A DNA stretch of 14,761 nucleotides. It comes from Candidatus Omnitrophota bacterium (GTDB lineage Bacteria > Ratteibacteria > UBA8468 > MWAK01). The notes under the pieces are model-generated. The model was not told the origin of the DNA. It did not search any database and saw only the letters and a list, made by a program, of their open reading frames with translations. The position numbers were made by a program, and so were the translations under genes. The stretch spans positions 1 through 14,761 of the forward strand of contig JAZDPL010000021.1 of NCBI GenBank assembly GCA_043797665.1. Reading direction: 5' to 3'. Below, piece by piece: positions 3,087 to 14,636 of this stretch; the first letter of the stretch is position 1; each line of letters begins with the position of its first letter.

Positions 3087-3172
3087 ATGGATTAACGATA
3101 GAACCAATTGCAAAAGTATCAGAAACCGTGAATTATTTTTGAAAAAAACGGCACAAATTTTATCAAAATATC

Positions 3173-3341
3173 ATGTCCCAAAAAAACAAAGTACAAGGCA
3201 GTCTGCTGGTCAGTTTTGACTGCACTCAGGATTATCCGGCGGAGACGTATCTAGAACATGGTTCTACCCAAATCGTAGAGACTGCGGCGGGCCGTGACCG
3301 GCTACATCGCGCGCAAAGCCGGACAGATGCTTGCAGGTTAG
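3173..3341 (+). pseudogene. Probable internal-deletion remnant: N-terminal 41 codons of a gene joined out of frame to a C-terminal tail
   Basis: 3173-3295 encodes protein-like [41 protein letters not shown]. From 3297 a different frame reads [17 protein letters not shown] (3339-3341), ending just before the RBS of the next gene. The downstream pilin-like gene has its own SD and ATG at 3374. Confidence 0.4.
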
Positions 3342-3373: not shown

Positions 3374-4057
3374 ATGTCTAAGAAGATAGTGAAGCGGATG
3401 GTGTTCGCGTTTACGCTGATCGAACTTTTGGTGGTAATTGCCATCATTGCCATTTTAGCGGCGATGCTTCTGCCGGCACTCAGCCGGGCACGGGAGAAAG
3501 CGAAGCAGGCGCAATGTATCAACAACTTAAAGCAGATTGGGCTGGCTGTGGCAATGTACGCACAGGATTATGACGAGTGGTTTCCTTGCACCGAAGGAAG
3601 TCCCTGGTATGTAGGTCCTGCCAACCCTTCGGGGTACTGGTGGACTAAATTACTTTACGACTTAGGATACATCCAGAACGCGGGTGTTCTCGTTTGCCCG
3701 AGTTGTTCTCCGTACCAATTTCGTATCCTCCCCGACCACCCCAACTACGCTTGGGGCCGTACCTATGGGTTCATCTACGGTGCATCCGTCCGGTTAAAAG
3801 AGGTTACCGACCCCACCTCGGCTGGTTTGATAGCCGATTCCATAGGTGTTGACAATGATCTTTTTCAATCTGCTTTTGTTTTACCACAGTATAACCCCGG
3901 GTGGCCGATATATATCCATAGCCGCCATACAGGATTTGCCAATGTTTTATTCTGGGATGGTCATGTAGCCTCCTGTAGCGATTCGGATTTGAGGAAAATT
4001 CCCAATAACTGGGCGAGTCAAGGTTTCATCACTTATAGTTATCCCGGAAATCCATAA
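3374..4057 (+). CDS. Prepilin-type N-terminal cleavage/methylation protein with C-terminal H-X9-DG domain (DUF1559-like), copy 1, 227 aa
   Basis: SD AAGGAG at 3364-3369 precedes ATG 3374. It has a basic leader [43 protein letters not shown], then [12 protein letters not shown] and [15 protein letters not shown] (H-X9-DG). The ORF-track start at 3173 is probably too far upstream. Confidence 0.93.
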
Positions 4058-4075
4058 TCAAACTATTCCTTATAA
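3482..4075 (+). repeat. Direct repeat copy 1 (594 bp), ~95% identical to 11975-12565
   Basis: Manual alignment gives 28 substitutions plus one 3-bp indel. It begins at AGCCGGGCACGGGAG and ends 18 bp past the stop codon (TCAAACTATTCCTTATAA). Confidence 0.97.
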
Positions 4076-4081
4076 TTTTCA

Positions 4082-4088
4082 AAGGAGG
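4082..4088 (+). promoter_or_regulatory. Shine-Dalgarno site for GH29 copy 1
   Basis: AAGGAGG lies 5 nt upstream of GTG at 4094. Confidence 0.8.
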
Positions 4089-4093
4089 TTACA

Positions 4094-5029
4094 GTGTCTA
4101 CTCGACGTCATAAGTGGTTCAGTCAAGCACGTTTTGGTATGTTTATCCATTGGGGCTTATATTCAATATTGGGACGCGGTGAATGGGTTATGGATGCTGA
4201 GAAAATTCCTCTGTCAGAATATGAAAAGTTAATTACAAGATTTAATCCCGAAAAGTTTAATGCAAAAGAGTGGGTTTCTTTGGCAAAATCAGCCGGAATG
4301 AAATATATGGTTCTTACGACAAAACACCATGATGGTTTCTGTCTTTTTGACAGTAAACTGACGGATTATACATCCAAGAATAGTCCGGCTAAAAAAGATT
4401 TTGTCGCCGAATTTGTTGAAGCATGTCGGAAAGAAGGCATGAAGATAGGATTTTATTATTCTCTCTTAGATTGGCATCATTCAGATTATCAGGCCAGTCC
4501 TGCTAAAGGAACACTCTCAAAAAAATATATTGACTATTATCATGGCCAGGTTAGAGAATTATGCACTAATTACGGCAAGATTGATATAATGTGGTTTGAT
4601 GGCGAATGGGACCACTCTTATCAGCAGTGGAAATCAAAGGAACTGGTAAGAATGATACGTAAGCTTCAGCCAGATATCTTAATCAATAATCGCCTCGGGC
4701 ATAAGGGAAATTGCCATAGAGATGATATTTCTTATAAAGAAGGAGATTTTGGCACTCCGGAACAGACGATTACTGCTGGGGCATCTGACCGTTTATGGGA
4801 ATCGTGTATGACAATGAATGACCACTGGGGATATGCTTTTGGTGACCATAATTGGAAAACTACAACACAACTCATCCATAACCTGGTTAGATGTGTTGCG
4901 GGTGGTGGTAACTATCTTCTTAATGTTGGTCCAAAACCGGATGGGACAATTCCATTACCATCGGTCAGGCGTCTTAAGAAAATAGGCTCATGGATAAAGA
5001 TAAATGGTAAATCTATATATGGTGCTTGA
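4094..5029 (+). CDS. GH29 alpha-L-fucosidase family protein, catalytic barrel only, 311 aa
   Basis: Motifs ARFGMFIHWGLYS, GEW, AGMKYMVLTTKHHDGFCLFDS, WFDG (nucleophile Asp), INNR, TPEQ, WESCMTMNDHWGY and GGNYLLNVGP. GTG start with strong SD. No signal peptide evident. Confidence 0.93.
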   Translation: MSTRRHKWFSQARFGMFIHWGLYSILGRGEWVMDAEKIPLSEYEKLITRFNPEKFNAKEWVSLAKSAGMKYMVLTTKHHDGFCLFDSKLTDYTSKNSPAKKDFVAEFVEACRKEGMKIGFYYSLLDWHHSDYQASPAKGTLSKKYIDYYHGQVRELCTNYGKIDIMWFDGEWDHSYQQWKSKELVRMIRKLQPDILINNRLGHKGNCHRDDISYKEGDFGTPEQTITAGASDRLWESCMTMNDHWGYAFGDHNWKTTTQLIHNLVRCVAGGGNYLLNVGPKPDGTIPLPSVRRLKKIGSWIKINGKSIYGA

Positions 5030-5033
5030 AAAA

Positions 5034-6089
5034 ATGAATAGTTTTGTCATACACAATAGGGGATTTTTGACTGATCTTTTTGGTGGAGCATCTCATAGAC
5101 ATGCAATTATTACGTGTCCAGAGCCAATCAAATCTTCGGATGGCGATTTTCTGGTTTCGAAAAAGCCGGTGAAAAACTGGCTGTCGTGGGCAGTTACTAA
5201 CTATGAATCTAAAGTAAAGATACTGGAACTTTTTCAGGATGATAGTGTTCCTTACGTCAACCTGAATACTAATACCGGTGTATTTGCGTCAGCCTTCGGT
5301 TGTTGCCTGCATGTTTACAAGGAAGATACGGCAGCTTGCGCCATGCCCATGGTTGAAACAGCAGAAGAAGCAGACCGTTTGCCAGAACCTGATTTGAACG
5401 CACCGGCCATTGAAAGATTTTTTGAACTAGCCAATTTCCTCCGCTATGAATTGGGTAAGGAAGTACCTATCAGCGTTCCGGATGTTCAAAGTCCGTTTGA
5501 CATCGCAGCCCTTGTTTGGAAAAAGGAAAATATGATGACGGCTCTGTACGAAAGGCCGGATTCTGTATTGCGATTGGTTGAGAAATGTCTACAACTTCTT
5601 AAGATTTTCCTGCGTACTTTCATACGTGAGTTTCCAAACTGCAATTTGTGTCATTGTCCAACTGCCTGGGCACCACCAGAATTCGGGGTGTGGCTATCAG
5701 AAGATGAAGCCGGTAGTATCAGCAGTGAAATGTTCGTAAAATTTTGTTTACCAAGCCTGGTTGCTCTCAGTAGAGAATTTGGCGGCATGTTCATTCACTG
5801 TTGTGCAAATGCTGATCATCAATACGGTAATTTCAGGCGTATTCCAAATTTGCGTGGGCTAAACCGTTATTTACCGAAACAGTCAGGTGGGCCGCGTGCA
5901 GTAATCGAAGCTTTCTCCGAGAAAACCGTAATCATGCCTCCTTTTGAAAACGAGCAGAAAGTGTATGAATGGCTTGATATGGCCTTGCCAAACACTCGTT
6001 TTCTCTTTAATTTGCCGGTTGATTTATTGAACATTGAGGAAGCAAAACGCATGTACGATCGCATCCGTGTTGCTGTCACTAAAAACTGA
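5034..6089 (+). CDS. Uroporphyrinogen decarboxylase / MtaA-like methyltransferase fold protein, ~351 aa
   Basis: Motifs PDVQSPFDIAALV, YERPDSV, SEDEAGSISSEMFVKFCLP and IHCCA (HxC metal-binding-like). The start is uncertain (ATG 5004, 5019 or 5034). Confidence 0.75.
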   Translation: MNSFVIHNRGFLTDLFGGASHRHAIITCPEPIKSSDGDFLVSKKPVKNWLSWAVTNYESKVKILELFQDDSVPYVNLNTNTGVFASAFGCCLHVYKEDTAACAMPMVETAEEADRLPEPDLNAPAIERFFELANFLRYELGKEVPISVPDVQSPFDIAALVWKKENMMTALYERPDSVLRLVEKCLQLLKIFLRTFIREFPNCNLCHCPTAWAPPEFGVWLSEDEAGSISSEMFVKFCLPSLVALSREFGGMFIHCCANADHQYGNFRRIPNLRGLNRYLPKQSGGPRAVIEAFSEKTVIMPPFENEQKVYEWLDMALPNTRFLFNLPVDLLNIEEAKRMYDRIRVAVTKN

Positions 6090-6166
6090 AATTAAAAAAA
6101 TGGAAGACCGTGCATTATACCATTCCATAGTAGGCAGGTACGAAAGGATCACCCAGGCAGTCAGAG

Positions 6167-7123
6167 ATGAAGATGTCAGAGGAAGAGAAGAAACGGTTAT
6201 TGCGGCTGATGCTGACCATCAGAAGTTTTGAACTGATGGTGCAGGAGAAACGTTTTCAAGGTCGTATTCCCGGCACGGCTCATCTCTATGTCGGTGAAGA
6301 AGCGTCTGCGGTGGGGGTCTGTGCCGGGCTAAAGAAAGATGATTATCTGGTCAGTACCCACCGGGGCCACGGCCACTGCATCGCCAGGGGCGCCGCGATA
6401 AATCTGCTGATGGCGGAGTTATACGGTAAATCCACCGGTTACTGCAGAGGCAAAGGTGGAAGTATGCATATATTTGTAAAGGAACTGGGTATCCTGGGCA
6501 CAAACGGCATTGTGGGCGCGGGACTTCCGTTGGCGCTTGGCGCAGGACTGCACGCAAAGTTGCGCAAGACCGGCCAGGTCTGTGCCTCTTTCTTCGGCGA
6601 CGGCGCGGCCAATCAGGGAACATTCCACGAATCGCTTAATCTGGCTGCGGTCCAGAGTCTGCCGGTTATTTTTGTCTGCGAGAATAACCTCTATGCTACT
6701 GAGACGCCGGTGCGGGATGCAACCCTGACTAAAAACTTTGCCGACCGTGCTCAGGCGTATGGCATCCCGGGAGAGGTGGTTGATGGAAACAATCTCCTGG
6801 AGGTTTGCGAGAAGGCTTCCCAGGCAATAGAGCGTGCCCGCTCCGGCCAGGGTCCAACCCTTTTAGAATGTAAGACCTACCGGTACCTCGGTCACTATGT
6901 CGGTCATGGTGAGACCGGTTACCGCACCAAAGAAGAAGTGGAAGCCTGGCGCAAAAGAGACCCGATAAAGTTATTTTTCCGGCATTTAGCAGCAGAGAAA
7001 ACCCTGAATGAGAAAGAATTCACTGACATGGAAGGAAAGGTACAGGCTGAGGTAGAAGAGGCGGTAAGGTTTGCGGAGGAGAGTCCCTTTCCGGAACCGG
7101 AAGAAGCGTTAGTAGGGGCTTGA
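6167..7123 (+). CDS. ThDP-dependent dehydrogenase E1 component alpha subunit (acetoin/pyruvate dehydrogenase-like), 318 aa
   Basis: Motifs HLYVGEEA, STHRGHGH, GKGGSMH, NGIVG, GDGAANQG...ENN (ThDP motif) and TYRYLGH. Confidence 0.93.
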   Translation: MKMSEEEKKRLLRLMLTIRSFELMVQEKRFQGRIPGTAHLYVGEEASAVGVCAGLKKDDYLVSTHRGHGHCIARGAAINLLMAELYGKSTGYCRGKGGSMHIFVKELGILGTNGIVGAGLPLALGAGLHAKLRKTGQVCASFFGDGAANQGTFHESLNLAAVQSLPVIFVCENNLYATETPVRDATLTKNFADRAQAYGIPGEVVDGNNLLEVCEKASQAIERARSGQGPTLLECKTYRYLGHYVGHGETGYRTKEEVEAWRKRDPIKLFFRHLAAEKTLNEKEFTDMEGKVQAEVEEAVRFAEESPFPEPEEALVGA

Positions 7124-7188
7124 TTCATCAAGCCCGCGGGTCGGATAAACCTGTCCCTGTGTGTAGTAAACAGGGATCCGACCCCTAC
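7112..7188. repeat. GTAG-type REP doublet (REPIN-like) with a nested hairpin
   Basis: GTAG-GGGCTTGAT-TC-ATCAAGCCC (7112-7135) is followed by GGGTCGGAT...ATCCGACCC-CTAC (7138-7188). Both have perfect 9-bp stems, with terminal inverted repeats GTAGGGG/CCCCTAC. An inner CCCTGT/ACAGGG stem sits at 7155-7175. Confidence 0.8.
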
Positions 7189-7216
7189 GTCAAAATATTT
7201 AATGCGTTTGTATTAA
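7189..7216 (+). repeat. 28-bp intergenic motif, copy 1
   Basis: GTCAAAATATTTAATGCGTTTGTATTAA matches 11830-11857 at 24/28 positions, ungapped. Confidence 0.8.
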
Positions 7217-8196
7217 TGCGTGAGATAAAGTATTTAGAGGCGCTCCGGGAAGGTTTTGCGGCCGGGATGCGCAAAGACCCTGATTCGTTTATGGCCGGTG
7301 AAGGAATCGGGGCGCGCGGCGGGTCTTTTGCTCATACTAAAGGATTGTATGAGGAATTTGGACCGGAACGGGTCCTGGATATGCCCATCTCGGAATCCGC
7401 CTTTGTGGGGATGTGTGCCGGTGCGGCAGCCTGCGGTTCCAGGGCCATAGCGGATTTGATGTATTTTGACTTTATCACCCTGGCCATGGACCAGATTGTC
7501 AACCAGGCGGCAAAGATACGGTATATCTCCGGAGGACAGTTTTCTATGCCCATGACCATAAATGCCATCTTCGGTATCTACCATTCTGCCGGTACCCATC
7601 ATTCTCAGACGTTCTATCCGTGGTTTATCAATACGCCCGGAATAAAGGTGGTCATACCCTCAACGCCGTATGATGTCAAGGGCCTTTTAGCGAGTGCTAT
7701 CATTGACGACAATCTGGTATTAGTATTAGAACACCGGGGATTGCTGAATATTAAAGGAGAGGTGCCGGAAGAAGACTATTTTTTGACCTTAGGTGAGGCG
7801 AAAGTTGTAAAAGAAGGTACTGATGTGACTATCGTGGCTACCGGTCTGATGGTACACCAAGCTCTTAAGTCTGCGGAGGTTCTGGCCGGCAAGGGAGTAA
7901 AGGCTGAAATTATAGACCTGAGAACCCTGGTGCCATTGGATGAGAAGACGGTTATTGATTCGGTTAAAAAGACCCACCGTCTATTAATTGTTGATGAAGG
8001 CTATGGCCCCTGTGGGGTTGGTGCGGAAATCACCGCTGTGGTTCAAAGCAAAGCATTTGATTTCCTGGATGCACCCGTCAGCCGTCTGCAGACTCTAAGC
8101 GTACCAATACCCTACAGTCCACCTTTGGAGCAGTATGTCATCCCTGATGTGGATAAGATTGTCAGTGCGGTATCAGATATTTTAGGAGGATTATGA
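7216..8196 (+). CDS. ThDP-dependent dehydrogenase E1 component beta subunit, 326 aa
   Basis: MREIKYLEAL is a typical beta N-terminus. Other motifs are FGPERVLDMPISE, DQIVNQAAK, HHSQ, PGIKVVIPSTPYD and IDLRTLVPLD. The extension back to TTG 7120 runs through the REP element and is probably non-coding. Confidence 0.92.
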   Translation: MREIKYLEALREGFAAGMRKDPDSFMAGEGIGARGGSFAHTKGLYEEFGPERVLDMPISESAFVGMCAGAAACGSRAIADLMYFDFITLAMDQIVNQAAKIRYISGGQFSMPMTINAIFGIYHSAGTHHSQTFYPWFINTPGIKVVIPSTPYDVKGLLASAIIDDNLVLVLEHRGLLNIKGEVPEEDYFLTLGEAKVVKEGTDVTIVATGLMVHQALKSAEVLAGKGVKAEIIDLRTLVPLDEKTVIDSVKKTHRLLIVDEGYGPCGVGAEITAVVQSKAFDFLDAPVSRLQTLSVPIPYSPPLEQYVIPDVDKIVSAVSDILGGL

Positions 8197-8990
8197 GGAT
8201 AGATTTGAAAGACAAAGTCGCGATTATTACCGGCGGTGCGGCGGGCATCGGCAAGGCTTGTGCAAAACTGATGCTGGAAAATTCTGCTCTGGTAATCATC
8301 GCAGACATCAATACTGAAGAAGGAAAAAAGACCATTACAGAACTATCCGCCCTCGGCAGTTGTGAATTTATCCGGACAGACGTTTCTGACCAAAAAAGCG
8401 TGGGAAATTTAGTGGAAGATGTCGTCAATAAATACAAAAGGATAGATATCATCGTCAACAACGCCGGCATCAATATTAACAAAGCCGAAGACCGTGTCAA
8501 TATTGACCAGTTTGTCTTTGAGGATTGGAAAAATATCCTGGATGTTGACCTCAACGGAGTATTTTATTGCTCTAAGGCGGTATCAAAAGTGATGATAAAA
8601 CAGAAATCGGGCAGAATTATCAATATCGGTTCTGTTTTTGGAAATGTTCCGGCCAGAAAACAGATCGCCTATGTGGCGGCAAAAGCCGGTGTGCACAATA
8701 TGACCAGAGCGATGGCTTTAGAATTAGCGCCGTACGGAATCAACGTCAATGCGGTAGCACCCGGTTCCACGCTCACCGAGGGTACCAGGATGTTGTTTTA
8801 CGGGGATGATGCGGCCCAGGCTGAAGTGGCGGAACGAATGTTATCCCATATTCCGTTAGGCCGCCCCGGCGAGCCGGAAGATATTGCCAACGCGGTACTC
8901 TTCCTTTCCGGTGAGGAGAGTAACTACATCACCGGCCATGTTTTAACCGTGGACGGTGGCTGGACCTGCGGATACACCAGAGACTTTTAA
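8193..8990 (+). CDS. Short-chain dehydrogenase/reductase (classical SDR, probably NAD-preferring), 265 aa
   Basis: Motifs TGGAAGIG, ADIN (acidic residue after beta-2), NNAG, YVAAK, VNAVAPG and VDGG. ATGA overlap with the upstream gene; SD AGGAGG at 8184-8189. Confidence 0.95.
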   Translation: MRIDLKDKVAIITGGAAGIGKACAKLMLENSALVIIADINTEEGKKTITELSALGSCEFIRTDVSDQKSVGNLVEDVVNKYKRIDIIVNNAGININKAEDRVNIDQFVFEDWKNILDVDLNGVFYCSKAVSKVMIKQKSGRIINIGSVFGNVPARKQIAYVAAKAGVHNMTRAMALELAPYGINVNAVAPGSTLTEGTRMLFYGDDAAQAEVAERMLSHIPLGRPGEPEDIANAVLFLSGEESNYITGHVLTVDGGWTCGYTRDF

Positions 8991-9000
8991 GGAGGAACAT

Positions 9001-9963
9001 ATGCTTAAGGTTGCGGTTACCGATTATAACTTTGGAGACCTTGCGGTAGAAAAGGAAATTCTGGAACCATTGGGTTGTGAGATAAAGAGTCAACAGAAGT
9101 ATGAAGACCAGCAAAACCTGATTGACCTGGTTGCGGACGCGGATTATGTAATCACCCAGTTTGCGCCGGTAACCGGTCCGGTTGTCAATGCGATGGAAAG
9201 ATGCAAGGTCATCGTCCGGTATGGCATCGGCGTGGACAACGTGGACCTGGTTACTGCCGCAAAGAAAGGCATTCCGGTCTGTAATGTTCCTGACTATTGC
9301 ATTGACGAGGTCGCCGATCATACCCTGGCGTTGATTTTAGCCTTAACCCGAAAGGTGGTGCCTAACCGGGAAAACATCAAAAACGGGAGATGGGGACTGG
9401 CCGTTCCGCTGGAACAAATGCAGGTGCTAAAGAGGACGACCGTAGGAGTGGTGGCTTACGGCAAGATTGGTCGGGAAGTGGCTCTCCGGCTCAAGGGGTT
9501 CAAATGCCCTGTCCTGGTCTTCGACCCGTTCGTTGATTCTTCGGTAATTGAACGGGATGGCTTTATTCCGGCAACCATGGAAGAGGTCTTTACCAAAAGC
9601 GACCTTATCTCTCTGCACTGTCCCAGTACCGCGGAAACAAAATATCTGATTAATGCGGAAAGTATTGGAAAAATGAAGAAAGGCGTCCTTCTGGTCAATA
9701 CCTCCCGCGGAACACTGGTGAAAACTGATGACCTGATTATGGCGCTGAAAAGCGGGCAAATCGGCGCGGTGGCCCTGGATGTGACTGACCCGGAACCAAT
9801 TCCTGCCGACAGCCCGTTACTGAAGATGGAAAACGTGGTGATTGGCAGCCATATCGCCTGGGCCAGCATAACCTCCGTACAAACCCTCCGCAGGAGTGCA
9901 GCGGACATTGTTGCCTGTGCCATAAAGGGTGAGGAACTGCCTAATATAGTCAAAATAAAATAA
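9001..9963 (+). CDS. D-isomer-specific 2-hydroxyacid dehydrogenase (CtBP/SerA-like), 320 aa
   Basis: SD AAGGAGG at 8989-8995 precedes ATG 9001. Motifs RYGIGVDNVD, NVPDYC, EVADH, AYGKIG, NTSRG, ALDV...EP and SHIA. Confidence 0.93.
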   Translation: MLKVAVTDYNFGDLAVEKEILEPLGCEIKSQQKYEDQQNLIDLVADADYVITQFAPVTGPVVNAMERCKVIVRYGIGVDNVDLVTAAKKGIPVCNVPDYCIDEVADHTLALILALTRKVVPNRENIKNGRWGLAVPLEQMQVLKRTTVGVVAYGKIGREVALRLKGFKCPVLVFDPFVDSSVIERDGFIPATMEEVFTKSDLISLHCPSTAETKYLINAESIGKMKKGVLLVNTSRGTLVKTDDLIMALKSGQIGAVALDVTDPEPIPADSPLLKMENVVIGSHIAWASITSVQTLRRSAADIVACAIKGEELPNIVKIK

Positions 9964-9964
9964 G

Positions 9965-10762
9965 ATGAACTTAGAAAAGGAAAAGAGACCGATAAGAATC
10001 TCTCAGGTTATTAAAGAAGAGAAGGTGAAAACAGACACAATCGCTGTCTTTTATTTGGCTCAGGCAGGTTTCTGTTTCAAAGATAGCCGTGGACAAACTG
10101 TATACTTGGACCCTTACCTGACCGATAGCTGTAACCGCCTCTTCGGTTTTAAGCGGATGATTCCCTCGGTCATTACTCCAGAAGAGGTTAACGCTGACAT
10201 CCTGGTTTCTACTCATAGTCACCTTGACCATCTGGATGTGGATGCGGTCCCCAGCTTCGCCAAAAACCCAAAAACCTGCTTTGTAGGTTCACCGGACTGC
10301 GAAGAGGTCTACCGGAAATTTCGTATTCCTGAACAGAGATACTCCATCCTCAAAAGAGGACATTCTGTAACCATTAAAGGGATAACCTTAAAGGCCACCT
10401 ACGCTGACCACGGCAAACTGGCGCCAGAAGCGGTTGGTTTCCTGATAGACCTTGACGGAATTAAGATTTACAATGTCGGCGATAGCGCTTATGCTCCAAA
10501 AAAGATTATGGATTCCCTTAAGACAAAGGTGGATATCATGATTTCGCCGATAAATGGCAAATTCGGAAATATGGATGCTAAAGAAACCTGCCGATTGGCT
10601 GGCGTTATCAAACCAAAAATTCTAATCGCCAGCCACTTCTGGATGTTTATCCAACACAATGGAGACCCGGAAAAATTCTTAAAGGAAGCCAAAAAACTTC
10701 CCGAAGGAATAAGGGCTTTGGTCATGGCGCCCGGCGAAAAACTTATCTATGTTCAAGGATGA
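9965..10762 (+). CDS. Metallo-beta-lactamase-fold hydrolase, UlaG (sugar-lactonase)-like, 265 aa
   Basis: Motifs LAQAGF, LDPYL, THSHLDHLD (HxHxDH), ADH, GDS, PINGKFGNM and SHFWMF. Confidence 0.88.
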   Translation: MNLEKEKRPIRISQVIKEEKVKTDTIAVFYLAQAGFCFKDSRGQTVYLDPYLTDSCNRLFGFKRMIPSVITPEEVNADILVSTHSHLDHLDVDAVPSFAKNPKTCFVGSPDCEEVYRKFRIPEQRYSILKRGHSVTIKGITLKATYADHGKLAPEAVGFLIDLDGIKIYNVGDSAYAPKKIMDSLKTKVDIMISPINGKFGNMDAKETCRLAGVIKPKILIASHFWMFIQHNGDPEKFLKEAKKLPEGIRALVMAPGEKLIYVQG

Positions 10763-10766
10763 TATT

Positions 10767-11828
10767 ATGAAAAAGATGATGAAGGCCGCCCGGATATTTG
10801 GAGTAAATGACATCAGAATCGTTGAGGTACCGGTGCCGGAATTAGGTTCTCATGACGTTCTCTGCCGGGTAGTAAAGGTGGGTGTCTGCGGAACCGACTA
10901 TTCCATCTATACCGGGACATTATCGTTTATCAAGACCGGTGCCATTAAGTTTCCGATGACCCCGGGTCACGAATGGTCTGGAATCGTAGAAAAGTCCGGT
11001 TCAGCGGTGGAAAATTTCAAGACCGGCGACCGGGTCGTCGGCGATACGATGGTTTCTTGCGGGGTTTGTTACGACTGCCTGGTGGGTGCCTACAGCCACT
11101 GCAAAAAGGGACGCGCGGTCGGAACAATCTATACCTGGGACGGCGCCTACGCGGAATACATTATGATGCCGGACCGGCACCTCTTCCATCTTCCGGACCC
11201 GGTGAGTTTTGATAACGGAGCGATGGTGGAACCGGCTGCCACCGCTCTCTATTCGGTTACCCGGGCTAACGTTAAAATTGCGGATACGGTTTTAGTCCAC
11301 GGAACGGGACCAATCGGAATAATGGCGGCTAAATTGGCAAAACTCTGTGGAGCGGTCAAGGTAATTATCACCGGCCGGAAAGAATTTAAGTTACAGAAGG
11401 CGCTTGCTTTAGGGGCAGATTTTGCTATCAACACCACCCGAGAAAACCTTGCGGAAAATGTCCGGGAATACGCTGGTCCTGGTGGTGTGGACAAGGTTAT
11501 TGAAGCCTCCGGCTCAACCCAACTCTTTACCGAATCGCTCGGCCTGGTCAAGCCCGGCGGTATCATTTCCATAGTCGCCTTCTATGAAAAAGAACTGGAA
11601 CGGTTTGACTTGGACAAATTCGTGATGAGCGACCTTACCATCCGGGCGGTCCCGGGAAGTTTAGGGATGTACGGACCAATCCTGAAATTGATGGCTTCCG
11701 GTACCATAGATTTTACTCCGCTCATCACCGGAAGATACCCTTTCGGAGAGGTTGAACAGGCTTTACAGGATATGGGAACCAAAAACGATACCCGCATCAA
11801 AATTATGCTGGAGATGACGGAGACCTAA
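10767..11828 (+). CDS. Zn-dependent medium-chain (sugar alcohol/threonine-type) dehydrogenase, ~353 aa
   Basis: Motifs CGTD, GHE, structural Zn CxxCxxCx7C (CGVCYDCLVGAYSHC) and GTGPIG. ATG 10767 follows AAGGA; 10749, 10776 and 10779 are alternative starts. Confidence 0.93.
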   Translation: MKKMMKAARIFGVNDIRIVEVPVPELGSHDVLCRVVKVGVCGTDYSIYTGTLSFIKTGAIKFPMTPGHEWSGIVEKSGSAVENFKTGDRVVGDTMVSCGVCYDCLVGAYSHCKKGRAVGTIYTWDGAYAEYIMMPDRHLFHLPDPVSFDNGAMVEPAATALYSVTRANVKIADTVLVHGTGPIGIMAAKLAKLCGAVKVIITGRKEFKLQKALALGADFAINTTRENLAENVREYAGPGGVDKVIEASGSTQLFTESLGLVKPGGIISIVAFYEKELERFDLDKFVMSDLTIRAVPGSLGMYGPILKLMASGTIDFTPLITGRYPFGEVEQALQDMGTKNDTRIKIMLEMTET

Positions 11829-11829
11829 T

Positions 11830-11857
11830 GTCAAAATTTGTCATGCGTTTATATTAA
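11830..11857 (+). repeat. 28-bp intergenic motif, copy 2
   Basis: GTCAAAATTTGTCATGCGTTTATATTAA is 24/28 identical to 7189-7216. It lies between the dehydrogenase stop and the SD (GGGAGG) of pilin-like copy 2. Confidence 0.8.
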
Positions 11858-11872
11858 ACGGGAGGGTGTAAA

Positions 11873-12547
11873 ATGGTTAAGAAAATGCTAAACAGGATGG
11901 GCTTCACGCTCATAGAGCTTTTGGTGGTAATTGCGATAATCGCGCTTCTGGCGGCGATGTTGTTACCGGCTTTGAGCCGGGCACGGGAGAAAGCGAAGCA
12001 GGCGCAATGTATCAACAACTTAAAGCAGATTGGGCTGGCTGTGGCAATGTACGCACAGGATTATGACGAGTGGTTTCCTTGCACCGAAGGAAGTCCCTGG
12101 TATGTAGGCCCTGCCCACCCCTTGAATTACTGGTGGACTAAATTACTTTACGACTTAGGATACATCCAGAACGCAGGTGTTCTCGTTTGCCCGAGTTGTT
12201 CTCCGTACCAATTTCGTATCCTCCCCGACCACCCCAACTACGCTTGGGGCCGTACCTATGGGTTCATCCAAGGTGCATCCGTCCGGTTAAAAGAGGTTAC
12301 CGACCCCACCTCGGCTGGTTTGATAGCCGATTCCATAGGTGTTGACAATGATCTTTTTCAATCTGCTTTTGTTTTATATTGGTATTACCCCGATTGGCCG
12401 ATACATATCCATCGCCGCCATACAGGATTTGCCAATGTTTTATTTTGGGATGGTCATGTAGCCTCCTGTAGCGATTCGGATTTGAGGGAAATTCTTAACA
12501 ACGCGGGTGAAAGTTTCATCACTTATAGTTATCCCGGAAATCCATAA
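11873..12547 (+). CDS. Prepilin-type N-terminal cleavage/methylation protein with H-X9-DG domain (DUF1559-like), copy 2, 224 aa
   Basis: SD GGGAGG at 11860-11865. Leader [21 protein letters not shown], then CINNLKQIG and [15 protein letters not shown]. Confidence 0.95.
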
Positions 12548-12565
12548 TCAAACTATTCCTTATAA
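11975..12565 (+). repeat. Direct repeat copy 2 (591 bp), ~95% identical to 3482-4075
   Basis: The offset from copy 1 is 8493 bp before the 3-bp indel and 8490 bp after it. Confidence 0.97.
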
Positions 12566-12581: not shown

Positions 12582-14636
12582 ATGTCACTGCAAAGAAACA
12601 TTTCATTTACTGATGAACGAACCCGCTGGTGGCGCGAAGCGCGTTTAGGCATGTTTATTCACTGGGGCTTATATTCTATACCGGCGCGCGGCGAATGGGT
12701 GATGTACAACGAGCGCGTGCCGATAAAAGAGTATGAGAAGCTCCGGAAAATCTTTAATCCGACGGGATATAATCCCCGTTCATGGGCCAGACTCGCCAGA
12801 TCCGCCGGCATGAAATACATGGTGCTCACCACCAAACATTGTGACGGATTCTGCCTTTTTGACAGCAAACTCACCGATTATACATCCATGTATACACCAG
12901 CGCGGCGCGATCTGGTCAGAGAATATGTGGATGCCTGCCGGTACGAAGGCCTACGCGTGGGCTTTTATCATTCCGTTTTTGACTGGCATCATCCTAATTA
13001 TCCATGGCACATGCATTCAAATTACACCCCCATTGACAAGACGTTTATCAAGCCGGACGAGAAAACATATTATCAATACCTGATGGGACAATTACGCGAG
13101 CTTCTGACCAACTACGGCAAAATCGACGTACTCTGGTTCGACATAACCTACGAAAATCTTGACGCCAGACCGTTAGCCAAAATGATCCGAACCCTCCAAC
13201 CTGATATCATGATCAATAACCGTGCTGACCACGATCATGGAGACGGCAATTATAACCGGCTGGGTATCATGGGCGATTTTCTGACTCCCGAACAATTCAT
13301 TCCCAAAGGTCAAATGACAATTGACGGCCAACCCGTTCTCTGGGAAACATGCAATACATTGACGGGGAATGTCTGGGGATACGATAAATATGACAACAAC
13401 TTCCGTGCACCGGAAGAATTCATTAAAATGATATCTCTCAGCGCCGGAGGCGGCGGTAACATGCTGTTGAATGTCGGGCCGCGTCCCGATGGTTCTATCC
13501 AATCGGAAGCCGTACACATTCTCAACGGGATCGGCAAATGGATACGGAAATACGGCGAATCAATTTACGGCACTTCCGCCGGTCCGGCCTGCTCTCTTCC
13601 TTACGGTATAATGACTGCAAAAGGGCATCGCATCTATCTCCACGTCTTTGACTGGCCAAAAAACGGCCGGCTTTCCCTGCCTCCGTTAAAGGACAAGCCG
13701 ATATCAGCGTCAGTGTTAGGCGGCCGGAAATTGTCATTGTCCGGCAACAATATACTTGTGCCGCGTGTTGCGCCGAATAAAGACAATTCCGTGCTGGTAC
13801 TGGATTATGAAAATATGGACGCGCTGAAACCGACCGTCAGCGTAGTGACGTCCACAGGCAGTTCTGTAAAACCGATCCGACAGATGAAGAAAATATCAGC
13901 GAAACGTCCCGTTGACTATGTGGTTAAACCGGGCAAACCTGTTGTTCTGGATGGCGGAATTCGTTTCCAAGACTGGAAACATGCAAAATCAATCCGCGTA
14001 ACGGACAGGCATAATTGGGACGAACCAATGGGACGCTGTGCTCCGCCGAAAACGGGCGAATGCGCGTATACATTGCGCATGATGCATGCGGAAGCGACGT
14101 TATATATCGCCGTTGAAATTGAAAGCCCTTCGCCGATCTCAAAATCAATCCTCTGGCTCGGCGATTCCGCGGAAATTGTGATGGGAGGGAATCCGAAAGA
14201 AAATGAACTGCGACATAATCGCGAGTCATTTCAAATCCTCGTGGACGTTGACGGCAATATAATGACACCTAAAGAATCCAACATCCCTGGTCTTGTCTTC
14301 AGACATACGGCATGCAGAACGAAGAAGGGATTTAATATTGTATTAGCGCTTCCTTTCGGCGTTCTTCTAAAAGACGCTCAACGGCCTGATTCGGCAATTC
14401 AAATCGGCGATAAGATTGATTTCAACATAGTAGTCAACCAGGCGGACGTCGGTCCGGGTTCGTATTGGAACGAGTATCAGGGGACACTGAAAAAAGGCCA
14501 ACCTTGGTGGACCGTCAAACCACCGGCGTCGCCCATGCTTCGGCATCGGGTATTCTGGAAGGGAAGAGGTAAAGAGAACCGTCCATTAACCAATCGCCGG
14601 GAATGGGGACGGGTAAAAATAGGAGGAACAACATGA
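12582..14636 (+). CDS. GH29 alpha-L-fucosidase family protein with C-terminal beta-sandwich and CBM9/DOMON-like domain, 684 aa
   Basis: SD AGGAGG at 12571-12576 precedes ATG 12582. Catalytic-domain motifs are GMFIHWGLYS, TTKHCDGF, WFD, TPEQ, NMLLNVGP and IYLHVFDWP. The C-terminal KPVVLDG...W...LYIAVEI...WLGDSAEI...ALPF...GDKIDFNIVVNQAD pattern is CBM9-like. Confidence 0.9.
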   Translation: MSLQRNISFTDERTRWWREARLGMFIHWGLYSIPARGEWVMYNERVPIKEYEKLRKIFNPTGYNPRSWARLARSAGMKYMVLTTKHCDGFCLFDSKLTDYTSMYTPARRDLVREYVDACRYEGLRVGFYHSVFDWHHPNYPWHMHSNYTPIDKTFIKPDEKTYYQYLMGQLRELLTNYGKIDVLWFDITYENLDARPLAKMIRTLQPDIMINNRADHDHGDGNYNRLGIMGDFLTPEQFIPKGQMTIDGQPVLWETCNTLTGNVWGYDKYDNNFRAPEEFIKMISLSAGGGGNMLLNVGPRPDGSIQSEAVHILNGIGKWIRKYGESIYGTSAGPACSLPYGIMTAKGHRIYLHVFDWPKNGRLSLPPLKDKPISASVLGGRKLSLSGNNILVPRVAPNKDNSVLVLDYENMDALKPTVSVVTSTGSSVKPIRQMKKISAKRPVDYVVKPGKPVVLDGGIRFQDWKHAKSIRVTDRHNWDEPMGRCAPPKTGECAYTLRMMHAEATLYIAVEIESPSPISKSILWLGDSAEIVMGGNPKENELRHNRESFQILVDVDGNIMTPKESNIPGLVFRHTACRTKKGFNIVLALPFGVLLKDAQRPDSAIQIGDKIDFNIVVNQADVGPGSYWNEYQGTLKKGQPWWTVKPPASPMLRHRVFWKGRGKENRPLTNRREWGRVKIGGTT

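Follow-up and report, generated by a model that had tools for sequence, protein, structure and literature searches.

A mosaic pair of DUF1559 pilin-like genes in a Candidatus Omnitrophota bacterium, probably shaped by gene conversion and local divergence of their heads

Background

The DUF1559/H-X9-DG pilin-like proteins form a large, expanded family without known function. Here, we investigated two such genes, copy A and copy B, that lie on one contig of a Candidatus Omnitrophota bacterium and are each followed by a gene of the glycoside hydrolase family 29 (GH29), the two pilin-plus-GH29 loci being 8.5 kb apart. All coordinates without a contig name are positions in the window, i.e., the whole 14,761-nt stretch that was analysed (contig JAZDPL010000021.1, + strand). 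A preliminary description, made from the sequence of this window alone, had reported that the two genes are near-identical and differ almost only by non-synonymous changes in three patches, and had proposed a diversifying system acting through segmental gene conversion, targeted mutagenesis or strong positive selection. The genome assembly is 86% complete and appears from its 141-base contig overlaps to be built from short reads; the absence of templates or donors reported below holds for the assembled part. The named sequences that matched its ribosomal protein S9 were only about 45–55% identical and came from mixed phyla.

Results

The two genes and their shared tract

Both copies carry the N-terminal methylation motif PF07963 (27.4 and 28.1 bits; cut-off 21.2), with TIGR02532 also above its cut-off, and match PF07596 downstream of the membrane helix (56.1 and 48.6 bits; cut-off 23.3) over profile positions 2–57 of 268 only. 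The H-X9-DG motif is present literally (H185, nine residues, D195-G196) and is near-invariant across 143 sequences. No NCBIfam model named after this motif was among the matches listed at E ≤ 0.001. The features are collected in Table 1.

Table 1. Features of the two pilin-plus-GH29 loci in the window
Feature	Position	Strand	Description	Basis
Copy A	3374..4057	+	Pilin-like gene (DUF1559/H-X9-DG) of 227 aa; F-T-L-I-E site with Ala at -1	Pfam PF07963 + PF07596
Leader and membrane helix	3374..3481 (B 11873-11974)	+	Conserved in protein, synonymously saturated versus B; the shared tract starts where it ends	Proportion of differing synonymous sites (pS)
Shared tract in A	3482..4075	+	Copied or converted tract, from the helix end to 18 nt past the stop	Alignment, 594 bp
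Patch 1	3616..3634 (B 12109-12127)	+	Residues 81-87, in the loop that follows the long helix; modelled with low confidence	
Patch 2	3884..3920 (B 12377-12413)	+	Residues 171-183, a loop plus the strand that precedes HxRH	
Patch 3	3995..4022 (B 12488-12512)	+	Residues 208-217, in the C-terminal segment; includes the Trp indel	
GH29 gene after copy A	4094..5029	+	Alpha-L-fucosidase family, 311 aa	PF01120, E=4.6e-102
Copy B	11873..12547	+	Paralog of copy A, 224 aa, Gly at -1	Pfam PF07963 + PF07596
Shared tract in B	11975..12565	+		Alignment, 591 bp
GH29 gene after copy B	12582..14636	+	GH29 family, 684 aa	Profile match

A recount of the shared tract reproduced the preliminary description exactly, with 28 substitutions, one TGG (Trp) indel at 4010-4012 of copy A, 15 replacements and 5 synonymous-only codons, and confirmed that the three patches (84 bp) hold 24 of the 28 substitutions, with long identical runs (134, 105 and 93 bp) outside them. 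The head regions are 91% identical, with 15 differing loop residues. Compared with 5000 random placements, the changes are clustered both by the densest window (10 changes within 39 bp, p=6e-4) and by the variance of the gaps between them (p=6e-4), and codons hit more than once number 6 where 1.27 are expected (p=4e-4). Patch 2 includes five adjacent differing bases and holds six replacements, whereas none of its six interleaved degenerate codons has changed. The patches are spread across 400 bp, and lone single differences persist at 3682 and 3952.

The 5′ end of the tract is marked by an abrupt step in divergence that went unnoticed in the preliminary description. In the first 25 mature codons, which encode the membrane helix upstream of the tract, pS is 0.77 with a nearly identical protein, while the next 31 codons are identical (pS 0). 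The helix regions of the pair share approximately 53 of 72 bases, against a genome-wide median of 54–57 of 72 for unrelated paralogs. Because of this step from 0.77 to 0, the unrelated leaders (the upstream leaders belong to different families), the GH29 proteins of only 51% identity and the end of the identity 18 nt past the stop codon, we infer that one of the two loci received its head as a copy from the other. No third relative that would give the direction of copying was found: there was no head relative among 135 pattern matches in the metagenome contigs, protein searches with copy A returned copy B only, with a protein cluster consisting of A and B alone, and a search of the DNA of 61 genomes gave, among the matches listed, matches confined to the helix region. 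The nearest other heads are about 30–40% identical, and no relative that covers most of the head goes beyond about 40%.

Conversion among paralogs of the family

The genome holds 61 DUF1559/H-X9-DG pilin-like paralogs, and three relatives have 56–59 Pfam matches each. For the comparison, we kept 54 of 59 Pfam matches in relative genome G020, 51/56 in G018, 53/58 in G017, 11/14 in G006, 7/11 in G003, 2/4 in G001 and 2/34 in G029 (30 of whose 34 loci were retrieved). For orthologs, genes of G018 were paired with those of G020, which gave 28 cross-species pairs, 21 of them syntenic and seven without a syntenic flank in the DNA available; one G006/G003 pair was excluded. The close paralog set comprised 26 pairs; ten independent pairs have at least 75% head identity (this genome, G017 and G020). 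The ratio of nonsynonymous to synonymous substitution rates (dN/dS, by Nei-Gojobori) had a median of 0.08 in the orthologs and 0.30 in the close paralogs; the orthologs are under strong purifying selection, unlike an antigenically varying pilin.

Mosaicism is largely a property of the paralogs. Differences are clustered at p<0.01 in 9/10 independent paralog pairs versus 2/28 ortholog pairs, and the helix is synonymously more diverged than the head in 9/10, with a median helix-minus-head gap of +0.21 in the 26 paralog pairs versus +0.02 in the orthologs. In seven of the ten pairs, the end of the shared segment lies between -9 and +47 nt relative to the last sense codon, and in the other three the segment continues into the next gene. 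Genes with unrelated heads also have exact helix tracts of at least 45 bp in common (8, 2, 3 and 4 in four genomes, versus means of 0.17, 0, 0 and 0 in 60 codon shuffles per genome), the longest of which (86, 59, 68 and 96 bp) exceed those in all shuffles. Because of these long exact tracts, the helix itself is probably exchanged, and helix divergence would give no date for a pair.

In the paralogs, the further a codon lies from the nearest replacement, the lower its synonymous change, which drops from 0.22 at 1–2 codons through 0.14 and 0.08 to 0.06 beyond 10 codons, and this gradient is much weaker in the orthologs (0.50, 0.44, 0.44 and 0.40). Pooled over the ten pairs, synonymous change amounts to 127/582 near replacements versus 18/303 far from them (p=1e-10); in the A/B pair alone the gradient is weak (2/27 versus 1/83). 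Non-pilin paralogs of the same genome with low synonymous divergence are mosaic in a similar way (0.22 to 0.08), which points to general host recombination. RecA, RuvB, MutS and MutL are presumably encoded in the genome, as judged by motif matches. The proposal of segmental gene conversion between pilin-like paralogs is accordingly upheld by the helix step, the mosaic pairs and the shared helix tracts.

Several further features of the family were noted. A second close pair (C46:26826-29693 and C81:1-6438) consists of near-identical pilins with a head dN/dS of 1.18 and replacements that are not patchy; the two contigs also carry 93%-identical DUF4838 genes, adjacent to the pilin gene in C46 and 3.5 kb apart from it in C81. 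In a third pair (C33:9452-10177 and 21526-22200; head dN/dS 0.40), the helix motif of one copy is altered to FALIE and its ARE-K-A stretch, which is otherwise conserved, has changed as well; this copy is perhaps decaying or respecialised. The residue at -1 of the cleavage motif is Gly in 27 of the 61 paralogs (18 Ala, 15 Ser, 1 Asn), versus 50–52 of 51–54 in three relatives. Two pilin genes with unrelated heads (C43:35947-36081 and C87:25702-25836, the latter at a contig end) share 135 identical bases upstream of and including the start, which may reflect either leader shuffling or an assembly branch, and the C43 gene has 86 helix bases in common with one on C17. Dispersed palindromic repeats of about 46 and 57 bp and a 280–330 bp repeat family are abundant, often at contig ends or upstream of pilin genes. 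A preference of contig breaks for pilin helices was rejected, as only 3 of 186 contig ends lie there.

Predicted structure and function

An alignment-based AlphaFold2 model of copy A (mean predicted local distance difference test score, pLDDT, 87.9) consists of a helix (residues 15-65) and C-terminal strands, with patches 1 and 3 as its lowest-confidence parts and covariation informative for the core only; a single-sequence model of copy B was poor (pLDDT 43). The best structural match was PilA4 (6xxd; Z 5.7, root-mean-square deviation 3.7, 121 aligned residues), a weak match with Z below 8, and the top 25 matches were all pilins or pseudopilins. Foldseek gave a best E of 0.027, and sequence searches found no solved relative of the head. 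Five PilB/GspE-like motif matches occur in the genome.

Residues C48, C108, H185 and H197 are near-invariant, and the first three covary; they may form a putative metal site, or C48 and C108 a disulfide, in the H-X9-DG head. By eye, most pilin-like genes are followed by long open frames, of which many begin like signal peptides, and regulator-like genes are often found upstream; the accessible text of a study of Planctomycetales states that signal-peptide genes often flank DUF1559 genes there (PMC8567305). Because of the strong conservation between species, the sequences suggest that every head performs a specific function that is retained, and that a role in escape is less probable. The likeliest candidate for this function is a putative binding to glycans or to enzymes of the operon. 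Head type showed no link to a GH29 neighbour, the other pilin-GH29 locus ranking only 16th of 61 in head similarity.

Neighbouring genes

The block between the copies (5004-11828) encodes sugar catabolism, namely a URO-D family protein, two E1/transketolase-type subunits, a short-chain dehydrogenase/reductase, a 2-hydroxyacid dehydrogenase, a metallo-lactonase-like protein and a Zn dehydrogenase. The GH29 gene after copy A stops where the Pfam catalytic profile ends, overlaps the next open reading frame and is possibly truncated, its paralogs having at least 425 aa. About 110 bp upstream of copy A (3162-3273) recur at 90% identity at C49:31622-31731, away from pilin matches, and Rfam gave no match to a structured RNA upstream of copy A.

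Discussion

We consider, with a probability of roughly 0.6, that the pair is explained by helix-anchored gene conversion together with divergent selection on variable loops. In a first step, which is strongly indicated, ectopic homologous recombination would have placed a copy of one gene's head-coding part in the other pilin-plus-GH29 locus, with the conserved membrane-helix region as the 5′ anchor and an end in the spacer after the stop codon, so that each locus would have kept its own leader, helix and GH29 gene. Selection would then have made the heads diverge at a few variable loops, which are probably exposed, and the scaffold may still be identical because the copy is young and/or because short conversions keep erasing differences. 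The loops would set head recognition, probably of a carbohydrate or of the operon's secreted enzyme, and the machinery would be general host recombination without a dedicated diversifier.

Evidence for selection comes from the comparison with the family and from the patches themselves. The dN/dS of the whole tract (0.81, with 0.95 for the patches against 0.30 for the remainder) is about ten times the between-species median, its 15 replacements to 5 synonymous changes differ from the 630:1500 of the ortholog pool (p=4e-5), and the changed residues sit in columns that are variable across 141 distant homologs (p=0.001). In patch 2, the six replacements stand against none of six degenerate codons changed, and dN in the patches is higher than even the upper limit of dS in the scaffold (p=2e-4, uncorrected for a window that was picked post hoc). 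The alternative is a neutral mosaic, in which mismatch-limited conversion erases isolated differences and stalls at dense, indel-prone loops without any positive selection, and several results weigh in that direction. The dN/dS of the pair does not rise above 1, and a ratio of 15:5 or more skewed arose in 37–71% of neutral-mutation simulations under four transition biases (P=0.37–0.71), which makes the ratio compatible with neutral mutation; neither does it differ significantly from the 246:190 of the other nine paralog pairs (p=0.11). Hence the counts behind the phrase "almost only non-synonymous" were right, but the ratio is no more than neutral, and of the proposed strong positive selection the amino-acid excess over the family background in variable columns stands, without a dN/dS above 1. 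Synonymous changes are, moreover, enriched in the patches (3/15 versus 2/160), with p=0.005 for the original borders and p=0.04–0.06 for borders drawn from replacements only, the patches having been defined after the data were seen. A slight near/far synonymous gradient exists in the orthologs too (p=6e-4), the non-pilin paralogs show the same gradient as the pilins, and no ortholog or third allele gives the direction of copying. An unseeded, mismatch-sensitive neutral model with short tracts reproduced 15:5 in up to 53/112 runs from ortholog starts and in 64/64 runs from older-paralog starts. Other neutral versions fit poorly: mismatch-blind conversion gave at least 15 replacements at 5 synonymous changes in 0/224 runs per setting, and conversion from perfect-match seeds without selection gave 15 replacements in 0–2 of 81–84 completed runs (ortholog starts) or, from older-paralog starts, in 3–6 of 48 at the shorter seed and in none at the longer one. 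The seeded model also leaves 23–40% synonymous change beside replacements (25–40% in the runs without selection), versus 2/27 observed (p about 0.009), and the 0/6 of patch 2 speaks against the neutral mosaic as well. Adding selection to seeded conversion was barely better (at most 13/48 runs), a further point against our explanation; old divergence retained by selection is therefore insufficient too, and a young copy with fast, codon-specific change is favoured over old retained patches. On selection versus a neutral mosaic the evidence is mixed, and we regard the neutral mosaic as rather unlikely.

Import of the patches through short tracts, from divergent alleles or paralogs of other strains or of the unassembled genome part, would account for the excess of multi-hit codons and the adjacent differing bases in patch 2, and the incompleteness of the assembly is in its favour. 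It is nevertheless improbable, as the longest exact patch matches elsewhere in the assembly are 13–15 nt, no close head occurs in the metagenome contigs or protein collections, and a diverged donor should have carried synonymous changes into patch 2. Silent, 5′-truncated donor cassettes were not found in the assembly either, the head region having no match beyond the two genes among the blastn matches listed. That a dedicated diversifying system (a diversity-generating retroelement (DGR), a pilS-like cassette or targeted mutagenesis) acts on the loops is hardly credible, although the changes are patchy and codon-focused and the genome does hold a complete DGR. The single reverse transcriptase match in the genome belongs to this element (C50:5448-10033), which comprises a caspase + CsgG + FGE-sulfatase target, a variable repeat (7512-7645), bAvd, a template (8679-8811) and the reverse transcriptase. 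Template and target differ at 18 positions in the coding repeat, all at adenines, and at 2 more just where the compared stretch ends, and the template matches the FGE-sulfatase target only. A scan of the assembly for adenine-type templates recovered this element as a positive control (10/10 mismatches at A) and found none for 6/6 patch windows. Templating of one copy by the other is excluded, since both copies lack A at 14 of the 28 differing positions; the 400-bp spread of the patches and the conserved orthologs also argue against such a system, and the suggested DGR link was rejected. An assembly artefact, with strain alleles chimerically joined or scaffolds homogenised by bubble merging, is suggested by the short-read assembly with its 141-base overlaps and by contigs C46 and C81 of the second pair, which both run into the same assembly node. 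Such an artefact is very improbable for copies A and B, because the longest identical run (134) is shorter than 141, the flanks on their one contig are unlike each other and the lone differences are kept; mosaics also recur in two other genomes.

Under conversion with divergent selection, the pair is a natural swap experiment for head recognition, in which the few differing loop residues point to those that probably set what the heads recognise. The pattern in the family is one of conservation between species, mosaicism between close paralogs and exchange of the helix among unrelated heads, and a 3:1 excess of replacements in such pairs is alone no proof of a diversifying machine. A broader scenario, which we consider distinctly unlikely, would make the pilin helix a universal recombination anchor in this bacterial class, with head cassettes swapped among about 60 sugar-utilisation operons, a 3′ junction just past the stop and two or three loops rapidly retuned. 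If true, these bacteria would own a library of pilin tips for the recognition of glycans or enzymes, which could evolve readily and might even vary within populations.

Comparison with known systems

Neisseria pilE/pilS combines a pilin-type scaffold with patchy variable regions that are altered by RecA-type conversion, and the opa genes are multiple full-length copies. The A/B pair resembles these systems in its pilin-like scaffold and patchy variable regions, but differs from pilE/pilS in that no 5′-truncated silent cassettes were found in the assembly and each copy is a full gene within an operon. Orthologs are, moreover, conserved (median dN/dS 0.08), and divergence is too high in the remaining heads for them to act as patch donors. 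From DGR-driven variation it differs in that no assembled sequence templates the pilin differences at adenines, even though the genome has one such element with bAvd, template and reverse transcriptase.

The pair shares both Pfam matches and the H-X9-DG motif with the DUF1559 (PF07596, SBP_bac_10) and N_methyl (PF07963) prepilin-like family, which is expanded in this genome and its relatives; in Planctomycetales, each genome is reported to have at least 41 such genes (PMC8567305). The accessible text of that study mentions neither conversion nor head exchange ("gene conversion" has 0 occurrences), and we found no description of conversion in the DUF1559/H-X9-DG family in the literature searched, mainly open-access papers. 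There is also a likeness to the divergence peaks that arise under interlocus gene conversion. In opsin, Drosophila and yeast duplicates, according to PMC3924837, small regions of high divergence stand out from very low divergence elsewhere where selection restricts conversion, and conversion can mimic positive selection. Common to these cases and ours are a homogenised tract beside older divergence (pS 0.77, then 0) and, class-wide, the gradient of synonymous differences around amino-acid differences; in the A/B pair, synonymous changes hitchhike less than would be expected from the model in its simple forms. The examples given there are eukaryotic two-copy systems, whereas here about 60 bacterial paralogs have only the helix in common. 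The mechanism is of a known kind, namely ectopic conversion with local divergence, observed here across a poorly known pilin-like family.

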